A stretch of DNA of 64,000 bases, taken from NCBI GenBank assembly GCA_019429305.1, contig JAHYIR010000004.1:79781-143780 (forward strand), given 5' to 3'. This DNA is from Candidatus Cloacimonadota bacterium. Its GTDB lineage: Bacteria; Cloacimonadota; Cloacimonadia; Cloacimonadales; JAJBBL01. The notes beneath the pieces were generated by a model, which was not told the DNA's origin, made no database searches, and was given only the letters and a program-made list of their open reading frames with translations. Of the stretch, positions 15,393 through 26,265 are shown one piece after another. How positions within the stretch are numbered: the stretch's first letter is position 1; every line of letters begins with the position of its first letter. The position numbers were made by a program, and so were the translations under genes.

Positions 15393-17750
15393 TTATCTTT
15401 TAGTCATAAATCCGACTTCATTAACCAGGATATGTCCTTTGGGTGTTATATCAAAGACCAATTCGATTATTGAGACACGCCTGAGATCAAAGTCAGGGTT
15501 CAGAGCATGCTGTTCTGCTAAATTAAAAACAAACAGCTGCTTAATGCTCTCGCCGTAAGGAGTAGGGTGGATCAGGTCGAGCTTTCCGAGTTTAGCTTCT
15601 ATCATCGGTTGTAGCGGAGAAAAATCACTGAGCGGGAAAGAGATTATATTATTACGATGATCGGTCAATCTGATAGTGAAATCGATCAATTTGGGCTCTT
15701 CAGCTTCTGAATCCTCATCATCTTCTTCCTTTGGGGTCTGATCTATGTTATTAGAATCATGGTCGTTATCATTCTGGTTATCTTCTTCATTGTTTTCGAT
15801 ATCATTCTTCTCCTTGGCGGTGGGTTGATTACCAGTATCGGCAAGAGTTAAATAGAGAAACTGTTGTGAGTTATAATAAGAGGGGAGTTCGATGTTGTAG
15901 GAGGCGATGAGGGTATCTTCTTCAGCGTTCCAACCGAGATAAACGGCTTTAGAGTCCATGCTATAACCCTTGAGACGGATCCGTCTTTCATACCAATCAG
16001 TAAGATTATCCCCTCTGATGGTTCCATCGGCGATAGTAGTTGTAGTCAGATCGAGATCCTCGTCGAAGTTAGCGATTGGGTACATACCTGCTCTCTTGTA
16101 TTGTTGCAGATAAATAGTTTCGGGTAACCAAGCTTGCGGAGCAGAGCGGTAATCGAGGAAGAGTTCTTCATATTCGGGAGCAAACATCAAAGTTCTTTCC
16201 AGAAAGGCAGTCATAAAGACCTTACCGATCCTCCGCTGATCTTCTCCACTGATCAGTTGTCCTAGGTTATAGTGATTGATATGCGGAGATGAGCTGTCTT
16301 TTCTACCCCAGACTGTGTTGAACTGACCATGATTAGCCCCATAAATGTAAAGAGTAGCTGCAAATCCTTCGAAATCGGGTGAAAAAGTGATCCGTTCAAA
16401 CTGTCTTTGTCCGGAAAATGAAGTCACATCTGCATCATGAGAGCCGTGCAGAGCAAGATAATTGATGTCTCTGAGCGGAGTTCTGACGACAGATGGTTGA
16501 TATTGGGCATCACAGGGGGCTATAGCAATTAAGGAAACGATAGAAAAATTATAATCGAATGCCAGAGATGCATCATCGGGGTAATAGGGGAGAGTGTTAA
16601 AGAGAGCAGCGTGAGCAATAGCTTCGCCTCCGCGGGAATGACCTATCAAGGCAATGTAGTCTAAATCAACCCGACGATAGAAAGGATTATCCGGTTTCTC
16701 TTCCCATTCCTTCCACTGTCTGATATGTTCCAGAAGCAACCAGCCTCGAGCATCGTTTTCATCGCTAAGACCACCAAAGATATCTGTAATAGAGCCGTTT
16801 ATGAAGTTCTGATCGACAGAAACTGTGATCATACCGCGACTTGCCCACAATTCGCCTAGATAAGCATAACCGGGATCTGAGTATTCCTGAGCCAAATGAT
16901 TACCGTGAACTATCAAGATCAAGGGAAAAGGTCCAACTCCATCAGGATACCAAACCCTACCATTGAGAGGTAATTCTTTGGCATCAAACCCAAAATATTT
17001 TGTGCGGAGATTACCGCTGAATCCCTTCCAGCTCGAAAGCATTTTTGAGCCGTCAACAGGTTGAGTTATCAATTCTGTATTTTCTCCAAATTCAGGGCGG
17101 TGCAGGTCTTTTCCACTCCCATAAGTCGTATAAACTACAGGGTAGTGACCATATTCCGCAGGATTGGGTAGTTCAATAAGAGCTGGTCGGTAATCGGTCT
17201 CTAAAGAAGCAATAAGCGGCATTTCGACTTCTCTGCCGGGATGAATGAGCCAATAAGCCCAAGCGATTATTGCTGCTAATCCGATCACAAGAAGCAGGTA
17301 ATTAGCTATCCGATGGATAGTCTTCTTTCCAGCTTTTTTTTGTTTGATGATGATGTAGAGAGATATGCCAACCAAAGAAACAGAGGTAGCCAAATAGAGA
17401 AAAGTAAGTAACATCACCCCTGTATTGACAGAGAAGAGAAAGAGAGTGAAAATCAGCAGAGCTACCAGAGTAGTCCGGAAAAACTCCGGGATCTTGATGA
17501 GCAAAGAGATGATCAGATTAAAGAGCAATCCCGATAGTAGAGAGATCAGAAAGATCGTTATTATGAATGCTGCTGTAAAGAGTAAGCCGATGGGCTTAAA
17601 ATATGGTGTTGCAACAACTATTATCACCAGAGCAATGAAGATAAAAATCAGTTTGGAAGCCCATTTTAAAGAGGGTAGTGAAGGGGTTAGAAATGATAGC
17701 ACCTTGAGAATAAAGGTAAACAGAGCATAAAAGATCTTTTTAAACAACAT
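15393..17750 (-). CDS. polytopic membrane-anchored alpha/beta-fold hydrolase (function unknown)
   Basis: Roughly 170 N-terminal residues form hydrophobic helices. The hydrolase core has LILIVHGNH and the nucleophile elbow GHSRGG. An acidic low-complexity linker (NNEEDNQNDNDHDSNN..EEDDEDSEAEE) precedes a C-terminal domain. Confidence 0.6.
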   Translation of the reverse strand: MLFKKIFYALFTFILKVLSFLTPSLPSLKWASKLIFIFIALVIIVVATPYFKPIGLLFTAAFIITIFLISLLSGLLFNLIISLLIKIPEFFRTTLVALLIFTLFLFSVNTGVMLLTFLYLATSVSLVGISLYIIIKQKKAGKKTIHRIANYLLLVIGLAAIIAWAYWLIHPGREVEMPLIASLETDYRPALIELPNPAEYGHYPVVYTTYGSGKDLHRPEFGENTELITQPVDGSKMLSSWKGFSGNLRTKYFGFDAKELPLNGRVWYPDGVGPFPLILIVHGNHLAQEYSDPGYAYLGELWASRGMITVSVDQNFINGSITDIFGGLSDENDARGWLLLEHIRQWKEWEEKPDNPFYRRVDLDYIALIGHSRGGEAIAHAALFNTLPYYPDDASLAFDYNFSIVSLIAIAPCDAQYQPSVVRTPLRDINYLALHGSHDADVTSFSGQRQFERITFSPDFEGFAATLYIYGANHGQFNTVWGRKDSSSPHINHYNLGQLISGEDQRRIGKVFMTAFLERTLMFAPEYEELFLDYRSAPQAWLPETIYLQQYKRAGMYPIANFDEDLDLTTTTIADGTIRGDNLTDWYERRIRLKGYSMDSKAVYLGWNAEEDTLIASYNIELPSYYNSQQFLYLTLADTGNQPTAKEKNDIENNEEDNQNDNDHDSNNIDQTPKEEDDEDSEAEEPKLIDFTIRLTDHRNNIISFPLSDFSPLQPMIEAKLGKLDLIHPTPYGESIKQLFVFNLAEQHALNPDFDLRRVSIIELVFDITPKGHILVNEVGFMTKR

Positions 17751-17955: not shown

Positions 17956-18906
17956 ATGAAATCAAGGAGATATATCAAGAAATTTATTACACCTATCCTA
18001 CTGGTTTTAGTAGCTTTTATGATCAGATATCTGATAGAGATGCAATATCTTTTTCCGGAGAGTATGCTAAATATATTGGCGAAATTAAGTTCTGTTCTTT
18101 TCATAGCAGGTATTGCCTGGGCGATAAATGTTTTTGTTAATATAGCCAAAATAAATCTTCTCAGTAAGTACGATATAGGAGAAGCAGACAATCTTAGGGC
18201 TCGTAAACTCTATACCCAATACAATATATTAGAAAAAATCATCTTCTTTATTGTTATTCTTATTGCGGTCGGGACTATCCTAATGCTTTTTGACGGTGTA
18301 AGAAATATCGGGGTCAGTCTCTTTGCTTCTGCCGGTATTGCAGGTTTGATCATAGGTTTGGCAGCTCAAAAGGCGTTAGGAACTATTTTAGCCGGCTTAC
18401 AAATAGCGATCACGCAGCCGATCAGATTAGATGATGTAGTAATTGTGGAAAATGAATGGGGCTGGATAGAAGAGATAAATCTGACCTATGTTGTAGTCAG
18501 GATATGGGACAAACGGCGATTAATTGTACCATCAACCTACTTTATGGAAAAAACCTTTCAGAATTGGACAAGAACCACTGCGGAAATTCTTGGTACTGTC
18601 TTTATCTATACTGATTATACTATCCCCTTTGATTCCATAAGGAACGAATTAACGAAACTTTTAGAAGGGAATCCTAATTGGGACGGTAAAGTAAATGTCT
18701 TGCAGGTAACCAATGCGAAAGAGGATGTAATTGAACTGAGAGCATTGATGAGTGCTGATAGTTCTCCTAAAGCCTGGGATCTGCGTGTCTATGTGCGTGA
18801 AAAACTTATTGAATATATCCAGAGAGAACATCCTCAGTGTCTCCCCAGAACGAGAATAGTTATTGAAGAAAAGAAGTCGCAAACTGACTCTGTGACAAAA
18901 AGTTAA
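17956..18906 (+). CDS. mechanosensitive ion channel, MscS family
   Basis: A GGAGG RBS precedes the ATG. TM helices are followed by the MscS signature GLIIGLAAQKALGTILAGLQIAITQPIRLDDVV..EIN.TYVVVRIWDKRRLIVP. Confidence 0.85.
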   Translation: MKSRRYIKKFITPILLVLVAFMIRYLIEMQYLFPESMLNILAKLSSVLFIAGIAWAINVFVNIAKINLLSKYDIGEADNLRARKLYTQYNILEKIIFFIVILIAVGTILMLFDGVRNIGVSLFASAGIAGLIIGLAAQKALGTILAGLQIAITQPIRLDDVVIVENEWGWIEEINLTYVVVRIWDKRRLIVPSTYFMEKTFQNWTRTTAEILGTVFIYTDYTIPFDSIRNELTKLLEGNPNWDGKVNVLQVTNAKEDVIELRALMSADSSPKAWDLRVYVREKLIEYIQREHPQCLPRTRIVIEEKKSQTDSVTKS

Positions 18907-18914
18907 GGGGGATC

Positions 18915-21107
18915 TTATGTTTTAGTCAAGCACTCTAAAAGTTTTATAGCATCAGCTTGGGTTTTAAGCATATATCTGGCATCGGTATAGATCTTGCCTA
19001 CTTTTATGGAGTAGGTATTATCAGGCAGCACTTTGAACAACTCTTCATCAGACCAATCATCACCGATAACCATAATAAAGTCATACTTCTTCTTTTCCAA
19101 CCAGAACATCATCAATTCACTCTTATCGATCCCCGAATGAAATACCTCTACGACCTTATTCCCATGAGAAACTTGGATATTGAGATTGAGAGTTATAGAC
19201 AATAGATTATCAACGAGCTCTTTCGATATATAAGATGCCTGTTCGATATCAGCTTTATGATAGTGCCAACTGACCGATAATTCCTTTTCTTCTATCATGG
19301 AACCAGGTAATCTGTCAGTATAGGTCTCCAAAACCGGAATGATCTCTTCTTTCCACTCGGTTGAAAAAGGTTTATGTAGCATCCATTCTGCTTCGTTTGC
19401 CTCTTTGATCCATGTTCCATGCTCTGCTGTAAGGTGTAACGGTATCTTCGCCAGATACTTATCCATGTATTCTTTGCTACGTCCGCTGTTGATTATTACA
19501 TCAGTTTTCCCTTTAGCTGCCAGAGCTCTCAGAAGTATTTTTATTTCCGGAGTTGGTATTGCGTCCCGATAGTCTTTTGTCATAGGGATCAATATTCCGT
19601 CATAATTGAGAGCAATGAATCTTTTTTGGGCTTGCTGGTAGTCTGCCAATATCTTATTCTTTATCTTAGGAATGAATCTCTTTTTGTTGAATGAGGTGAC
19701 GGATAATTGATGTATTTCCTGTAATCTGTCAATGAAGTCAGTAGCCCATCGGGTTACATTGTATCGTTTTAAACGTTCCTGCATGATGGAATTATAACGA
19801 ACTTGTTTCTTTATAGGGATCTCAAGTGCTTCTGCAATTGCGTCGGCAATTTCTTCTATATTGTTGGGATTGATGATAATACTTTCACTCAACTCTTTAG
19901 CTGCTCCCGTGAACTCACTCAGTACCAAAACCCCCTTCTTATCAGTCAATGAAGCCACATATTCTTTAGCGACCAGATTCATCCCATCCCTTAGTGGTGT
20001 TAGTAATGAAACATTGCTCATCCTGTATTGTGCAATGAGCTCTTTATGAGGTAGCGAAGTATATTGATAGATAATAGGCGTCCAGTCAATACTACCATAA
20101 TCACCGTTGATCTTTCCAACTAATTCGTCCAGGTTACTCTTGATCTTTTGGTATGATTGAACTCCGGTACGAGAAGGTACAACGATCATATTCATATAGA
20201 CCTTTTTATGCCATTGAGGATTTTTTTTCAGAAAGAGTTCAAAACCTTCCAAACGGTTAACGATCCCTTTGGAGTAATCTAAACGATCTACCGAAAGCAC
20301 GATCTTCATTTCATTCTTTCTTGGTTTCGAGGAACGAAATGGAGTGACATCCATATCGTGAAACTTCTCATAATCAATACCCATAGGAAAAGTACCGACT
20401 TTTACAATTCGATCATGGAATGAAATTTCTCCCATATAGCTTTCATAACCGAGGATACGGAGTACACACCGCAAGAAGTACTGCGTATAGTCGTGTGTAT
20501 GAAAACCGATAAGGTCAGAACCGAGAAGCCCTTTCAGGATCTCACTTCGTGGCTCTTTGGGAAGAGTACGATAAACTTCGAAGGCGGGGAAGGGGATATG
20601 CAGGAAAAAGCCGATGGGATTATCGATTTTCTTTCTTAAAAGAGCCGGCAGCAACATCAGATGATAATCATGAACCCAAATTATATCATCGGGCTGAATA
20701 GCTTTTAAAAGTTCTTCACAGAAGATCTCATTCATCTTTTTATAAGAATCCCAGAATTCCATATCGAACTTGGTATAGTTGAGAAAATAGTGGAACAGCG
20801 GCCAAATAGTTTTATTGCAGAAACCGAGATAGACCTTATCCATCAAAGATTGAGAGAAAAAGACCGGTGCTGCCTTAAAGATCTCTTTGACTTTTTTACT
20901 GATCAGCTCTTCATCTGATCTATCTATCGACATGCCGGGCCAACCCATCCAGAGAAAATCATCTATTGTTGACTTTGTTCTCTCTAACGAGTTGAGATAA
21001 TCAGTCAAACCAGAGACCAAACCACCGGCACTTTTTGTTAATTCATAACGGTTATTCTTTTTACTTACTGCTACAGGTAAACGGTTAGATACTATGAGTA
21101 ACCTCAT
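18915..21107 (-). CDS. otsA: trehalose-6-phosphate synthase (GT20) fused to a trehalose-phosphatase-like domain
   Basis: The N-terminus RLLIVSNRLPV...GGLVSGL and the GT20 core (VHDYHLMLLP, LSVDRLDYSKG) are present. The C-terminal HAD-IIB-like domain has IALNYDGILIP, INSGRS and GDDWSDEELF. Confidence 0.85.
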   Translation of the reverse strand: MRLLIVSNRLPVAVSKKNNRYELTKSAGGLVSGLTDYLNSLERTKSTIDDFLWMGWPGMSIDRSDEELISKKVKEIFKAAPVFFSQSLMDKVYLGFCNKTIWPLFHYFLNYTKFDMEFWDSYKKMNEIFCEELLKAIQPDDIIWVHDYHLMLLPALLRKKIDNPIGFFLHIPFPAFEVYRTLPKEPRSEILKGLLGSDLIGFHTHDYTQYFLRCVLRILGYESYMGEISFHDRIVKVGTFPMGIDYEKFHDMDVTPFRSSKPRKNEMKIVLSVDRLDYSKGIVNRLEGFELFLKKNPQWHKKVYMNMIVVPSRTGVQSYQKIKSNLDELVGKINGDYGSIDWTPIIYQYTSLPHKELIAQYRMSNVSLLTPLRDGMNLVAKEYVASLTDKKGVLVLSEFTGAAKELSESIIINPNNIEEIADAIAEALEIPIKKQVRYNSIMQERLKRYNVTRWATDFIDRLQEIHQLSVTSFNKKRFIPKIKNKILADYQQAQKRFIALNYDGILIPMTKDYRDAIPTPEIKILLRALAAKGKTDVIINSGRSKEYMDKYLAKIPLHLTAEHGTWIKEANEAEWMLHKPFSTEWKEEIIPVLETYTDRLPGSMIEEKELSVSWHYHKADIEQASYISKELVDNLLSITLNLNIQVSHGNKVVEVFHSGIDKSELMMFWLEKKKYDFIMVIGDDWSDEELFKVLPDNTYSIKVGKIYTDARYMLKTQADAIKLLECLTKT

Positions 21108-21119
21108 GAGAATTACCTC

Positions 21120-23513
21120 CTATAGTTTAAACTCCTTTGTATCGTCCTTCTTTAAGAGAAATACTTTATCTCTGAATCCGATCTTTACAGGGTTAGACCA
21201 GCCCTTATCAAATTCGAGTCTAAGTTTTTTATGATTGATAGTGAGATTGATCCAGTGTCCACGGTAATGGACATGAAATTTCATCGATTTGATATCATCC
21301 GGTAATGTCGGTTCTAACCAGAGAATGTTATCTCTGATATCGAGACCCGAATAACAACGTTGGATCAGATCCATCGTACCTGCCATAGCTCCCAGATGAA
21401 TACCCTCATGGGTTGTGCCACCCTGAACATCCTTAAAATCACTCATCAAGGCACTCTTGAAACTCTTCCAAGACTGTTCCCGATGAGAACGGGCATAGAC
21501 CCAAGAATGAATGACCTGACTCAGCGTAGAACCGTGTGCTGTTCGTTTCTCATAATATTCGATATTTTTTGGTATCGATTGTGGATCAAAATCATAGTTC
21601 AATTTCTTGAGTATCTTTTCTAATTCGGAAGAGGAGAAAATGTAAAAGAGCATCAGAACATCTGCCTGTTTAGAAGCTTTGTAATGGTTAGGTGAATCAC
21701 CTTCGCTTTCCAGAATACGGTCGAGCCGGAGATGTTCGCCATATTTCTTATGATAATGATCCCAATCGAGTTCTTTGAGTTTTTCGAAACCCTCGAATTG
21801 CATGATTATATCACCATCATAAAAGGGAACATACATCTTCTGCGTTATATCTTGCCATCTCTGTAGATCACTGTGAGTAAATCCTATCTTCTCCGCCAAG
21901 TCATTAGCACAGGTATCATCAAGGATATTGAGCAGCTCTAAAGCGTGTTGTAAAACCCAAACAGCCATGATATTGGTATAAGCATTGTTATTCAGACCCG
22001 GCTCTTTAGTACCCGGATAATGGGTATGATACTCATCCGGACCCATCACATTATGAATTTCATAACGGTCTCTTTGGGGATTATAATGAGCTAAACTTGA
22101 CCAAAAGAGGGCAGTAGCAATGATAATTTCAGCACCGTGAGCAACGAGGAAATCCATGTCGTCGCTACATTGGTAATAATGCCAAACATTCAAGGGAACT
22201 GCAGCATTGATATGATACTGCAGATGAGAAACATCGGGTAACCATCTACCTGATTTGGGATTGAGATGCATCTTTTGAGTCTCTTCACGACCGTTACTGC
22301 CGCTCTGCCAAGGGAAGAGAGCACCTCGACACCCGATCTCTTTTGCCATCTCATAAGCTTCCGTTAATCGGCGATAACGATACATGAGGAGTGATTTAGC
22401 TAATTCTGGTTGATGCAGATTGATAAAGGGTAAGATATAGATCTCATCCCAGAAGATATGACCACGATATGCTTCACCATGCCAGCCACGGGCGGGAATG
22501 CCAATATCATAACCTATACTGTTCTTGGAAACCGTCTGATAGAGGTGGAAGATATGAAGGCGTAGAACAAATTGATCTTCAAAATCAGCATTTATCTTGA
22601 TATCATTATACTTCCAGATCTGTGACCAGGAAATACAATGCTTAGCAGCGATACTTGAAAAGGTAGTCAGACGCTGAATTTTTGTTTTTGCTTCTGTTAA
22701 CGGGTCACTGATGGCGAAATCTCTCGAAGTATAAAGAGATACGAGTTTCTCTATCCTTATCGGTTGCTGTCTTGAGCATTTGATCTGAAAATCACCAGCA
22801 ATGAATCCTTTTTTGTTGATTACTTTATGCTTTGTGGACTGCTTTTTTTCCTTGATATAGATATTGGTTTTTGCTGCTTGTGTCATGAGTATTTTTGATT
22901 GTTTCGTTCTGCTGATAAGGTAGATACTGTTGTCGAAGAAGGCATCCTTTTCTAACACCTCGATATGACCCTGATTGAGTTCCCGATAACGTGCAACATT
23001 ATTATTAATGATATCACCATCGATACCTGAACGAATAGTTATCTTACCAGACCAGTTTTCCGGGATGATCTGCCATTCTATAGCAGCTACATGATAATCA
23101 TTCATACTGACTATTCGTTTACTGATTAGGGTTGTCTCTCTTTTTTTGCTGTCACGAAAACGTATTTTTCGTAATAGATATCCTGCCTCCAGATCGAGAG
23201 TTGTAGTATATTCAAGAATCTCAACGTCAACAAGATCAAGCCACTTACCATCGCCGATCTTGAAGGTTAAGAAGAGCCAATTTGGCCAGTTTACAAGATC
23301 TTCATTTTCGATCTCTTTCTTCTGGATGACAGATTTCAATCGATTATAACCTCCGGCAAGATAAGTACCCGGGTAGTTGAAATCGTTATCCCGATAAAAC
23401 TCCAGAGCAGCTCGTGTTGCGAAATACCCGTTACCTAATGTACATAATGCCTCTTGCAGAGGATGATCTTTCTTATTCCATTCTTCGTACTCTATTGTCC
23501 AACCTTTCTTCAT
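21120..23513 (-). CDS. glycoside hydrolase family 65 disaccharide phosphorylase (trehalose / trehalose-6-P / kojibiose / maltose phosphorylase type)
   Basis: The protein is about 800 aa with GH65-like motifs YRGHIFWDEIYILPF and FPWQSGSNGREETQ. It lies 3 nt downstream of a beta-PGM-like gene, the classical GH65 partner. Confidence 0.85.
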   Translation of the reverse strand: MKKGWTIEYEEWNKKDHPLQEALCTLGNGYFATRAALEFYRDNDFNYPGTYLAGGYNRLKSVIQKKEIENEDLVNWPNWLFLTFKIGDGKWLDLVDVEILEYTTTLDLEAGYLLRKIRFRDSKKRETTLISKRIVSMNDYHVAAIEWQIIPENWSGKITIRSGIDGDIINNNVARYRELNQGHIEVLEKDAFFDNSIYLISRTKQSKILMTQAAKTNIYIKEKKQSTKHKVINKKGFIAGDFQIKCSRQQPIRIEKLVSLYTSRDFAISDPLTEAKTKIQRLTTFSSIAAKHCISWSQIWKYNDIKINADFEDQFVLRLHIFHLYQTVSKNSIGYDIGIPARGWHGEAYRGHIFWDEIYILPFINLHQPELAKSLLMYRYRRLTEAYEMAKEIGCRGALFPWQSGSNGREETQKMHLNPKSGRWLPDVSHLQYHINAAVPLNVWHYYQCSDDMDFLVAHGAEIIIATALFWSSLAHYNPQRDRYEIHNVMGPDEYHTHYPGTKEPGLNNNAYTNIMAVWVLQHALELLNILDDTCANDLAEKIGFTHSDLQRWQDITQKMYVPFYDGDIIMQFEGFEKLKELDWDHYHKKYGEHLRLDRILESEGDSPNHYKASKQADVLMLFYIFSSSELEKILKKLNYDFDPQSIPKNIEYYEKRTAHGSTLSQVIHSWVYARSHREQSWKSFKSALMSDFKDVQGGTTHEGIHLGAMAGTMDLIQRCYSGLDIRDNILWLEPTLPDDIKSMKFHVHYRGHWINLTINHKKLRLEFDKGWSNPVKIGFRDKVFLLKKDDTKEFKL

Positions 23514-23516
23514 AAT

Positions 23517-25103
23517 TTATTCATTCCCTTTCTTGTTTTTATGTATCTCAACTATCTTTTCAAAAAACTCTTTGACCTGAAAGACATTTTTTAGCGAATA
23601 ATTGGCAGCAGTTTCTTGTCCATGGCTTCCGACCATAATACCTATTCCTTTGTCTTTGAGTGCTTTAAAAGCATCTTCATCCGTTATATCGTCACCGATA
23701 AAGATAGGTAAATACTTGCTAGAGTCATCTAATCCGAGTTCTTCTAAAATCCAGAAGACAGCTTTGCCCTTATGCCAGTCCAGATCTGGTTTTATCTCTA
23801 CCACCTTCTTGCCTTCTCCCTTTTTCAAGCCCTTGTTGTTCTTAATGATCTTATCTACTACTTCGTAAATATAAGGGATATCTGATTCTCGGGCATTACG
23901 ATAATGATTCGCAATGGCGTAGCGCTTTCTTTCTACCTGGACACCTTCTGTTTTATCTTTGAATCTATCAACTAGTTCTTGTTCTATCTTATCGAGTAAC
24001 TGAACTATCTCACCGGCTTTCTCATGTTCTTTCTTCATACCATCAGGACCAATTATATCGTAACCGTGACTACCAGCATAGATAAGATTATCGAGTTGCA
24101 CTAAATTCTGTATGTCTTTGGTATCTCTTCCTGTAATAATGGCTACAGTAAAGTTGTCTGCCAGTTCTTTCAAGGTCTGTTTCATTTCTGGAGATATCTT
24201 GGCATCTTCCGGTCTGCTAACAATGGGTGTTAGCGTACCGTCATAATCGAGAAAAAAAACAGGTTTGCTGGCAGAAATACTCTTAAATATATCGGTCTTT
24301 TGGGTGAATATCAACGGCTTGGGAATATCAAAGTACTCAGCTATCATGGGATTATCGAAAAGGTCTAAATCAGCGAAGTTATTGATAATTATGTCAGCTC
24401 CGTTAGCTAAGAGAGCATCACCATTGTTGAATCTATTTACTCCTACCACTAATCCGAAATGACCTCTTTGACCCGCTTCTACGCCCGAAATAGCATCTTC
24501 AAAGACAACCCCGTTTTCCGGAGAAATATTTAGATACTTAGCTGCTTCTATAAATATATCCGGATTTGGTTTACCCTTTAAATGACGCTGTTCGGCTACT
24601 ACTCCATCTATTCTAACATCGAATAGTTTGTCTATTCCAACCCGTTTGATGATCTTTTCACAATTTTTGCTGGATGATACTATTGCTGTTTTTAATCCTA
24701 AATCTCGCCATTGTTTTAGCTTTTTGACAGCATTACGATATGTTTCGACTCCGTTCTTCTCTATCATCTCATTAAATATTTGATTCTTTCTGTTACCTAG
24801 TCCGCAGATAGTTAATTTATCGGATGGATCCTTCTTATCCCCATACGGGAGTTCTATATTTCTCGATTTTAAGAAACTCCTAATACCTTCATAGCGTGGT
24901 TTCCCATCAATATAGATTTTATAATCCATGTCGGTCATTGAAGTGGTATCAAATTTCTTATCATCTACGGTAAGTAGATATTCATCAAACAACAATTTCC
25001 AGGCAGATTTATGAACTTCCTGCGTCTGGGTTAGCACTCCGTCTAAGTCAAAGATCAAACCTTTGATTCGTTTTGTTAACAATTCTCTGATATTCTCTTT
25101 CAT
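23517..25103 (-). CDS. fusion protein: beta-phosphoglucomutase-like HAD domain + trehalose-6-phosphate phosphatase domain
   Basis: The N-terminal half has LIFDLDGVLTQT, VSSSKN and FEDAISGVEAG (beta-PGM-type HAD-IA). The C-terminal half has FFLDYDGTLTPIVSRPEDA, ITGR and GDDITDEDAF (OtsB-type HAD-IIB). Confidence 0.8.
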   Translation of the reverse strand: MKENIRELLTKRIKGLIFDLDGVLTQTQEVHKSAWKLLFDEYLLTVDDKKFDTTSMTDMDYKIYIDGKPRYEGIRSFLKSRNIELPYGDKKDPSDKLTICGLGNRKNQIFNEMIEKNGVETYRNAVKKLKQWRDLGLKTAIVSSSKNCEKIIKRVGIDKLFDVRIDGVVAEQRHLKGKPNPDIFIEAAKYLNISPENGVVFEDAISGVEAGQRGHFGLVVGVNRFNNGDALLANGADIIINNFADLDLFDNPMIAEYFDIPKPLIFTQKTDIFKSISASKPVFFLDYDGTLTPIVSRPEDAKISPEMKQTLKELADNFTVAIITGRDTKDIQNLVQLDNLIYAGSHGYDIIGPDGMKKEHEKAGEIVQLLDKIEQELVDRFKDKTEGVQVERKRYAIANHYRNARESDIPYIYEVVDKIIKNNKGLKKGEGKKVVEIKPDLDWHKGKAVFWILEELGLDDSSKYLPIFIGDDITDEDAFKALKDKGIGIMVGSHGQETAANYSLKNVFQVKEFFEKIVEIHKNKKGNE

Positions 25104-25485
25104 GATACTTTTTTAGACACCTGCCCGTGCCCATTATAACCTCCGTTTTCTTTTTTTTAGGTTGTTTGTGGACTACTTAGAAGTTAGTGTTCTTGCCACA
25201 ACATAGAATCAAATTTTTAACTCGTTTAGAATTTTTTCTCTTTAACAACATAAGTGATATAACTTTACCGACAGGTTTCTGATGTGTCAAGAACTTATTT
25301 ATTTTTATATATAATGTCTGTTTGAATAAAATCTTGCTTAACAAAAAAAAATCATAGAGGATGAAAGCACTATTTTTTATCAACAAGTTATTGTAAGACA
25401 AACTGAATGAAGTCTTGCTGTTATGAAAGAAAAAAGTTAGAATTCTATACAGAATAAGTAATAAAGAATGAATTTAAAAAAGGGC

Positions 25486-26265
25486 TTATCTGCTTTGATT
25501 TCTTGCAGATCGATATTCTTGTTTATAGGTTCTACCGATTATTAGTACTTTGTGACCTATCCGGGCATCCTGAAATACTCTGTACATATCGTCCCTTTCC
25601 AGAGCTATGCAACCATGAGTCCAGTTTCTGCGAGTAGCCGGTCTGTTATCATGAGCACCACGGGTATGAATACCGATGGCATCACCTAAATTCGTACCTC
25701 TGATACCACCGTCAAATGTCTCCAATCCCTGTAATATTCTTCTCTCTTCAGCCGGAGTTATCAAGCCATCACTTAAACCCCTTTCCACATCGAGATGATT
25801 GGGATAACTAATCTCCAAGAAGTATTTGTAGTTAGCTGAAGCGTGTTTATCATAGATAAAGTATTCACCTTCCGGTGTTCTCCCGTCACCTCTTCTCTCT
25901 TTTCTATTTACCGGGTCGAAGCCGAGAGCGACATGTACCGGAAACCCTTCTTTCATTTCTCCGTTTTCGTAAAGGTATAAATTTCTGATGGTCTTATCGA
26001 TCACTATGAGCCTTTCTTCAGGATTTGTAGCAACAAAGTTGTTGATTATCTCTTGGGAGAGACTACTCGCATAGAGCTTGGTTGAACGAGGGTATCTGAC
26101 TAAAAAGTAGTTATATACTCTGCGGGCAAAAGCTCTGGGGAGAGACAGAAGACGATTATTATTATTGAAAGTGATAATAGCTGTCAGTAAAGTAATTGTT
26201 AGAAATAACAAGAGAAAGAGAGTGAAGATAATGACCTTTCTTTTCTGTGATCTTCTTGCTTTCAT
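25486..26265 (-). CDS. L,D-transpeptidase (YkuD domain), membrane anchored
   Basis: An N-terminal TM segment is followed by the YkuD catalytic region IGIHTRG...THGCIALERDDM. Confidence 0.8.
   Translation of the reverse strand: MKARRSQKRKVIIFTLFLLLFLTITLLTAIITFNNNNRLLSLPRAFARRVYNYFLVRYPRSTKLYASSLSQEIINNFVATNPEERLIVIDKTIRNLYLYENGEMKEGFPVHVALGFDPVNRKERRGDGRTPEGEYFIYDKHASANYKYFLEISYPNHLDVERGLSDGLITPAEERRILQGLETFDGGIRGTNLGDAIGIHTRGAHDNRPATRRNWTHGCIALERDDMYRVFQDARIGHKVLIIGRTYKQEYRSARNQSR

Follow-up and report, generated by a model that had tools for sequence, protein, structure and literature searches.

In a 64,000-nucleotide (nt) stretch of the Candidatus Cloacimonadota bacterium assembly GCA_019429305.1 (contig JAHYIR010000004.1, positions 79,781 to 143,780; the whole stretch is hereafter called the window), we identified three minus-strand genes that we believe form a trehalose synthesis operon centered on trehalose-6-phosphate (T6P). 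On this reading, to which we give a probability of about 0.6, the operon makes trehalose as a compatible solute and adds to the usual OtsA reaction a reversible branch that would connect glucose-6-phosphate (G6P) to T6P with no nucleotide sugar. The branch would be carried by a beta-phosphoglucomutase (beta-PGM) and a predicted GH65 T6P phosphorylase. The T6P phosphatase (TPP)-like domain fused to OtsA is probably a conserved pseudophosphatase, and the working TPP would be the one fused to the beta-PGM.

Domain composition of the operon

The three open reading frames lie at 25103-23517 (gene 1, 528 amino acids [aa]), 23513-21120 (gene 2, 797 aa), and 21107-18915 (gene 3, 730 aa), with gaps of 3 nt between genes 1 and 2 and 12 nt between genes 2 and 3. 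The initial annotation had described three closely packed minus-strand genes carrying a beta-PGM-like domain with a TPP, a GH65 phosphorylase, and an OtsA with a phosphatase-like domain, and had listed the motifs DLDGV, FFLDYDGTL, and IALNYDGIL. Our coordinates and profile searches agree with that description, and all three motifs were found as given. Domain calls throughout were made with Pfam and NCBIfam profiles. The host assembly is 2.39 Mb and 99.9% complete (labeled G000 here, with the operon on contig C28), and it was compared with a same-phylum set of 158 genomes at least 90% complete.

Beyond the operon, with its two TPP domains, one GH65 gene, and one GT20 gene, the host genome has no other member of these kinds (tblastn, with PF02358 for TPP). 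We found no GH37 or GH15 trehalase and no EIIC component of a phosphotransferase system (PTS) in this genome. Canonical GalU was not found in it either. The host does encode a eukaryote-type uridine diphosphate (UDP)-sugar pyrophosphorylase (PF01704, 460 bits) at G000:C40:65165-66388, and PF01704 was detected in 0 of 14 control genomes.

The N-terminal domain of gene 1 (aa 13-250; 24354..25067, minus strand) matched a beta-PGM. It is about 50% identical to the beta-phosphoglucomutase in PDB entry 8h5s (E 5e-57). In alignments with 8h5s and with 6hdh/1lvh-type beta-PGM, the equivalents of D8, D10, T16, H20, R49, S114, S116, K117, N118, K145, E169, and D170 are all kept; these positions include the catalytic and phosphate-binding residues of Lactococcus lactis beta-PGM. 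The assignment of this haloacid dehalogenase (HAD) domain as a beta-PGM stood at the level of the subfamily model TIGR02009, which it passed (aa 13-220, 160.9 bits; cutoff, 153.35), but not at the level of the equivalog TIGR01990, whose cutoff it missed (110.9 versus 189.4 bits).

The C-terminal TPP domain of gene 1 (profile match at aa 278-518; 23544..24272, minus strand) scored 190 bits with PF02358 and 190.6 bits with TIGR00685 (cutoff, 68). Its motifs are complete: DYDGT, TGR, E..K..K (with K445), and GDDITDE, plus R402. This is the only catalytically complete TPP domain of the host genome, which supports the earlier proposal that the active phosphatase is the one fused to the beta-PGM-like domain.

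The N-terminal domain of gene 3 (aa 2-463; 19719..21104, minus strand) is a GT20 T6P synthase, OtsA. It scored 486 bits with PF00982, and its matches to Tps1 and OtsA structures in PDB reached E 1e-121. Over its full length, gene 3 scored 910.4 bits with NF011071, the model of bifunctional OtsA/OtsB proteins (cutoff, 634).

A proposed T6P phosphorylase branch and its likely direction

In the model we favor, the GT20 domain of gene 3 would provide an irreversible supply of T6P from nucleoside diphosphate (NDP)-glucose and G6P. The TPP-like domain of the same protein would be unable to form the aspartyl-phosphate intermediate. T6P would be dephosphorylated instead by the TPP domain of gene 1, and trehalose would be its sole exit. 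The beta-PGM of gene 1 would interconvert G6P and beta-glucose-1-phosphate (beta-G1P), and the GH65 protein would interconvert beta-G1P plus G6P with T6P plus inorganic phosphate (Pi). With the irreversible TPP step holding T6P low, the branch would supply T6P without a nucleotide sugar, for a net conversion of two G6P to trehalose and two Pi; if T6P accumulated, the branch would reverse and return it to G6P. For the phosphatase-like domain on OtsA, we favor a role in the structure or regulation of OtsA, perhaps with T6P binding retained. An MscS channel encoded next to the operon would be the corresponding outlet when osmolarity drops.

The pairing of a TPP with a beta-PGM and a GH65 protein is widespread. 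A scan based on the GH65 alignment gave 80 loci, spread over archaea and a wide range of bacterial phyla. With few exceptions, the GH65 gene either directly follows a beta-PGM~TPP gene (the tilde marks domains fused in one chain) or is itself part of a beta-PGM~GH65 or beta-PGM~TPP~GH65 fusion. Six loci (L040, L042, L043, L048, L056, and L081) encode all three domains in one chain, as beta-PGM~TPP~GH65 proteins of about 1,330 to 1,400 aa; such triple fusions come from archaea, Desulfobacterota, and Sulfurovum and retain every TPP motif. These single-chain proteins indicate that genes 1 and 2 of the window are the split form of one architecture, as the initial annotation had suggested. Unfused OtsA genes are adjacent at about 10 of the 80 loci. 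Regular-expression searches had called many beta-PGM-fused and triple-fused TPP domains degenerate (LLDGL, IVDRM); we discarded these calls after proper alignment, which showed all of them to be intact.

Within the phylum of the window, we observed three topologies. The first combines OtsA~TPP with beta-PGM~GH65 (G147). The second, that of the window, combines OtsA fused to an Asn-type phosphatase-like domain with beta-PGM~TPP and a separate GH65. The third combines OtsA fused to a degenerate TPP with beta-PGM~GH65 (G022 and G160).

Four of 10 module-bearing genomes, namely, three complete chromosomes (Vicinamibacterales, Binatia, and Nitrospirales) and Kineobactrum sediminis, lack both GT20 and PTS EIIC and keep an intact TPP. 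With neither of these sources of T6P, the TPP in these four genomes can only be fed by GH65 running towards T6P. This is one of three reasons why we favor the synthetic direction. A second is the fusion of TPP to beta-PGM, and in six loci also to GH65. The reaction of the lactococcal T6P phosphorylase TrePP reportedly favors T6P formation (work of Andersson et al. in 2001). The third reason is of the same kind: the GH65 T6P phosphorylase step prefers T6P formation in vitro (PMC13121652). In a host that also has OtsA, such as ours, we consider a net synthetic direction to have about even odds.

A role in turnover of T6P would explain the same genes differently. GH65 and beta-PGM would then act solely in the phosphorolytic direction, splitting T6P into two G6P as a safety valve that limits T6P toxicity or recycles carbon, with OtsA and the TPP of gene 1 as the only source of trehalose. 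The beta-PGM equilibrium favors G6P, OtsA in the same operon is a conventional source of T6P, and GH65 and beta-PGM are a known catabolic pair (PMC11442529). Yet with no PTS EIIC to import trehalose as T6P, breaking down T6P made by OtsA would waste NDP-glucose. Turnover also fits poorly with the fact that, in many phyla, TPP is covalently joined to beta-PGM or the entire module, and with the presence of the module in genomes that have no GT20 at all. We regard this explanation as unlikely, though one to be taken seriously. A catabolic role of the Lactococcus type is likewise unlikely, since the host has no PTS EIIC and no GH37 or GH15 trehalase, and nothing in its genome would convert trehalose to T6P.

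Several points weigh against the synthetic reading. The step from G6P to beta-G1P is uphill, so flux would depend on the pull of the TPP. The host has both OtsA and a UDPGP-type pyrophosphorylase, so a second input to T6P is not required. The beta-PGM domain falls below its equivalog cutoff, and the closest structural relative of gene 2 is named a hydrolase (see below). The Asn-type OtsA-fused domains form one clade, so their regular association with beta-PGM~TPP effectively counts as one evolutionary event. In G022 and G160, whose OtsA-fused TPP is degenerate, we found no other TPP domain in either genome, and our model leaves these two unexplained. Finally, our literature search found no assay of any protein of this module. 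The same search turned up no publication on a fusion of beta-PGM with TPP, nor one on trehalose synthesis through T6P phosphorylase in nature.

Specificity of the GH65 protein

Gene 2 (21120..23513, minus strand; 797 aa) has the three domains of a GH65 protein, with 215 bits for PF03636, 421.5 bits for PF03632, and 50.2 bits for PF03633. The general acid is E494 in GPDEYH, equivalent to E487 of LbMP. It aligns with the catalytic Glu of 9lb6, 3wiq, 4ktp, and 1h54 and is invariant in the 98 members of the clade (98/98).

De Beul et al. defined six positions that set GH65 specificity and confirmed by assay that the combination DQGQDE marks T6P phosphorylases (PMC8537180); it is borne, for example, by the assayed enzyme of Caldithrix abyssi (PMC8537180). 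At these positions (64, 392, 394, 402, 416, and 585 of CsKP), gene 2 has D72, Q403, G405, Q413, D427, and E604, that is, DQGQDE. The same six residues occur in 79 of the 98 clade members. Second GH65 paralogs at the same loci read EEAPLE, which is the kojibiose type. These paralogs serve as an internal control and imply that the six positions discriminate. Taken together, these data support the prediction that gene 2 encodes a T6P phosphorylase, in keeping with the role first proposed for it.

Another GH65 specificity, for kojibiose, trehalose, or another alpha-glucoside, or a T6P hydrolase activity would tie the operon to an unrelated glucoside pathway. The best PDB match of gene 2 is 9lb6 (E 2.4e-131, 442 bits), an entry titled "trehalose-6-phosphate hydrolase," and the next is the kojibiose phosphorylase 3wiq (380 bits). 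PMC13121652 cites a T6P phosphorylase from Feng et al. 2025, which is probably the protein of 9lb6; our literature search found no paper describing PDB entries 9LB6 and 9LB7. The phosphate site of GH65 phosphorylases consists of Lys, His, and two Ser residues, and the general-base Glu of hydrolases is absent (PMC8626586). By sequence alignment only, the phosphate site of gene 2 comprises S662-T663, H706, and R350, so that Ser-Ser has become Ser-Thr and an Arg apparently replaces the Lys; the pattern in 9lb6 is the same. These departures, like the two PDB matches, could speak for a different activity. Against it, gene 2 agrees with assayed T6P phosphorylases at each of the six specificity positions, and its residues there set it apart from the motifs of kojibiose (EEAPxx), maltose, and trehalose phosphorylases (PMC8537180). 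Gln697 of gene 2 sits where hydrolases have their general-base Glu, as in CsKP (PMC8626586), and the GH65 gene consistently has a TPP domain beside it or in the same chain. We therefore consider a different GH65 specificity improbable and retain a T6P phosphorylase in the model.

A probable pseudophosphatase domain fused to OtsA

The C-terminal domain of gene 3 (aa 493-729; 18921..19631, minus strand) belongs to the TPP family by profile, with 138 bits for PF02358 and 103.2 bits for TIGR00685 (cutoff, 68). Its motif I reads NYDGI. Residue 501, at the site of the HAD Asp nucleophile, is Asn, and its codon is aat (19605..19607, minus strand). We verified this codon on the DNA, so the replacement of the first Asp of DxDG holds as originally noted. 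On the evidence of its motifs, the domain is a TPP homolog and not a catalytic member of the family; it passes the profile thresholds and would be noncatalytic all the same because motif I lacks the Asp nucleophile. N501 aligns exactly with the engineered D24N substitution of Cryptococcus neoformans Tps2PD (PDB 5DX9), a mutant used to trap T6P in the crystal structure (PMC11997177). In this copy, motifs II, III, and IV are present (SGR, K, and GDDWSDE), and the equivalents of R402 and K438 are His and Phe.

Asn occupies the nucleophile position in 119 of the 120 closest homologs, which are 59 to 77% identical to gene 3 and come from independent assemblies. A substitution this regular across independent assemblies is neither chance nor sequencing error. 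In an alignment of the clade (n = 119), the Asn and an Asp two residues downstream are invariant (119/119 each), and the motif III Lys is kept in 118 of 119. Other catalytic features have been lost. The GDD of motif IV has become GAG in most Bacteroidales members of the clade and is variously DD, NN, AD, or SG in the phylum of the window; gene 3 is among the few clade copies that keep GDD. Two basic residues that are invariant in all intact TPPs examined are also lost in the clade, with the R402 equivalent changed to His and the K438 equivalent changed to Ser, Tyr, or Phe. The earlier view that the OtsA-fused domain is probably inactive thus gains from both the match to the 5DX9 trap and the further losses in the clade.

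The domain is nevertheless maintained. Identities to relatives are 51 to 67% for the Asn-type domain, 51 to 74% for the active TPP, 48 to 67% for the beta-PGM, and 70 to 84% for GT20, the most conserved of the four. Judged by these values, the Asn-type domain is not decaying and evolves no faster than the active domains. We believe that it is probably a conserved pseudophosphatase, most likely kept for OtsA structure or regulation, for which the Thermoproteus tenax fusion discussed below offers a precedent. The invariant Asn, together with the Asp two residues on, suggests that the domain may still bind T6P. The label "bifunctional" is probably wrong for the Asn-type clade.

That the OtsA-fused domain is still an active phosphatase, through an altered mechanism or deamidation of the Asn to Asp, so that the operon would have two TPPs, seems very improbable: motifs II to IV persist in this copy and the invariant Asn and Asp suggest a pocket in use, but changing this Asp to Asn is how TPPs are routinely inactivated to trap substrate (5DX9; PMC11997177), most clade members also lack the motif IV Asp pair that binds Mg as well as the two conserved basic residues, and every Asn-type genome has a separate intact TPP.

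In a phylogenetic tree, the Asn type forms one clade (Shimodaira-Hasegawa-like approximate likelihood ratio test [SH-aLRT] support of 100) that spans the phylum of the window and metagenome-assembled genomes (MAGs) of Bacteroidota. Asn-type and Asp-type proteins are both present within a single family of the window's phylum. We read this pattern as a sign that the operon has been transferred and that the Asp-to-Asn change arose only once. The base-composition profile gave no foreign-DNA signal.

The single Asp among the 120 close homologs is found in P0009 (L103 2938-5055; Logan SRR7614767, 70% identity), where a GH65 gene precedes the OtsA gene. We considered P0009 as a restored enzyme and dropped it on account of this GH65 neighbor and of its motif IV, which reads AAD; its Asp probably arose by reversion in a domain that had lost its activity before. 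In a Bacteroidales MAG (L004 5435-7616), a frameshift between the two domains splits the Asn-type OtsA fusion gene. Cyclobacterium xiamenense has the module in a complete genome, and its only GT20 gene is spread over two frames (G161:C1:4073019-4074391).

An intact TPP accompanies the Asn-type OtsA

Loss of the nucleophile coincides with the presence of a separate TPP. In all 17 Asn-type loci or genomes with readable context, Bacteroidota included, we found beta-PGM~TPP with the DYDGT motif and GH65 (17/17). The six same-phylum genomes with an Asn-type gene (G000, G002, G004, G014, G021, and G125) all have a motif-complete beta-PGM~TPP and GH65; in G014 this pair lies on a separate contig from the Asn-type OtsA. 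By comparison, beta-PGM~TPP was nearby in none of 88 loci with an Asp-type OtsA-TPP that retains DxD (8 from the same phylum and 80 others). Eighty-six of these 88 are fully intact, and in six same-phylum genomes a fully intact OtsA-TPP occurs with no second TPP domain.

The 80 other loci, which come from Bacteroidota, Pirellulales, Paenibacillus, and Bathyarchaeia, were obtained by a genome scan with the Asn-type cluster P0298. Among 135 representative OtsA-TPP clusters, 121 keep the Asp. Four further clusters, mutually distant, have Asn at the nucleophile position (P0267, P0276, P0298, and P0389; NY[DG]G), and others have Glu, Gly, or Thr. As an independent replicate of the compensation pattern, the P0298 scan gave nothing, since it returned only intact Asp-type loci (80/80).

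The two exceptions among the 88 are G022 (L012 9423-15962) and G160 (L102 1337-7904), which have lost motifs II and IV. Their TPP keeps DxD, with SGR changed to SQA, GDDTDE changed to SDGTGE or SDGAGK, and R402 lost. The degenerate OtsA~TPP adjoins a beta-PGM~GH65 fusion with the signature DQAQDE. A rule of one intact TPP per genome was rejected on account of these two genomes, whose only TPP is degenerate.

Comparison with known systems

The closest characterized relatives of the branch are L. lactis TrePP (GH65, EC 2.4.1.216) with PgmB and the T6P phosphorylases of Ca. Kuenenia stuttgartiensis and C. abyssi, with which it shares the three-domain GH65 architecture, DQGQDE, and the pairing with beta-PGM (PMC8537180; PMC11442529). 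The lactococcal pair catabolizes trehalose imported by a PTS. In our host, by contrast, PTS EIIC is missing, a TPP is joined to the beta-PGM, and the operon includes OtsA. Engineered T6P cascades (Taguchi 2020; PMC13121652) likewise make T6P from beta-G1P and G6P through a GH65 enzyme, with an optional beta-PGM and no nucleotide sugar. Those cascades run in vitro with maltose phosphorylase as the feeding enzyme; the operon would be their natural counterpart, in which the fused TPP carries the sequence through to trehalose. A 2026 paper terms the T6P-phosphorylase route "new-to-nature" (PMC13121652).

Mycobacterium tuberculosis OtsB1 (Rv2006) is a 1,327-aa protein annotated as "glycosyl hydrolase, otsB1," an otsB homolog of unknown function (PMC11046441, PMC7753917). 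It belongs to the DosR regulon and is much larger than OtsB2; we liken it to the module by literature description only (PMC11046441, PMC7753917). The arrangement that we call OtsB1-type has a beta-PGM-like HAD, a TPP, and a GH65 domain in one chain, and in the window it is split over two genes 3 nt apart. Recombinant OtsB1 was reported to lack TPP activity (PMC11046441), whereas the TPP of the window is motif-complete.

The bifunctional TPSP proteins of Cytophaga hutchinsonii and Thermoproteus tenax have the same fusion of GT20 and TPP, the one modeled by NF011071. They keep motif I as DXDX(T/V) and are TPP active, whereas the window has NYDGI and its phosphatase is on another protein. The T. 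tenax protein needs its TPP domain for T6P synthase (TPS) activity, and its operon also includes a mechanosensitive channel (PMC3634074). Yeast Tps3 and Tsl1 and the plant class I and II TPS proteins are TPS-TPP fusions in which one domain is catalytically dead and kept for structural or regulatory reasons (PMC3634074). Unlike these eukaryotic complexes, the case in the window is bacterial, with a clean Asp-to-Asn change, gradual decay of motif IV, and a coupling to the gain of a beta-PGM-fused TPP.

We put forward a broader proposal more tentatively, at somewhat less than even odds. Here, beta-PGM~TPP with GH65 would be a natural nucleotide-sugar-free trehalose route and the function of the mycobacterial OtsB1 family, and the Asn-type domain would be a T6P-binding pseudophosphatase that regulates OtsA or passes T6P to its partners. 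If true, this would be a sixth trehalose pathway, one with only sugar phosphates as input and a lower energy cost. Such a pathway would matter to energy-limited anaerobes, as the module occurs in Cloacimonadota, sediment Bacteroidales, sulfate reducers, and alkane-oxidizing archaea, and it would give a testable function to OtsB1. Judging by the Asn-type clade, thousands of proteins annotated as "bifunctional trehalose-phosphate synthase/phosphatase" are probably monofunctional, and the clade would offer a clean bacterial case of a pseudoenzyme domain retained after its activity moved to another protein.

Neighboring genes and minor features

An MscS-family mechanosensitive channel gene (17956..18906, plus strand; PF00924, E 1e-12) is convergent with the operon and lies 8 nt from the gene 3 stop codon. 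Homologs with 61 to 75% identity stand beside the operon in nine related loci, and in G002 the MscS gene is a codirectional fourth gene. A tenth copy (L013, in G014) lies about 7 kb from the beta-PGM~TPP and GH65 pair of that genome. The conserved MscS neighbor fits an osmotic role.

The other flanking genes encode a membrane protein of 785 aa that resembles alpha/beta-hydrolases and matches almost nothing in Pfam (15393-17750, minus strand) and a YkuD L,D-transpeptidase (25486-26265, minus strand). Neither of them appears tied to the operon.

Upstream of gene 1, a consensus scan gave a candidate promoter, TTGACA-17-TAAAGT (25262..25290, minus strand), 160 nt from the start codon. The number of such sites in the region does not exceed that in shuffled sequence, and the match is weak evidence for a promoter. 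A strong GGAGG at 25143-25139 is followed by a 28-codon out-of-frame upstream reading frame (ATG at 25134) that overlaps the gene 1 ATG at 25103 (whole span 25048-25143, minus strand). The public annotation places the start of gene 1 seven codons downstream, for a product of 521 aa. In three other loci (L009, L010, and L015), a GGAGG likewise lies about 35 to 45 nt 5' of the main start of gene 1.

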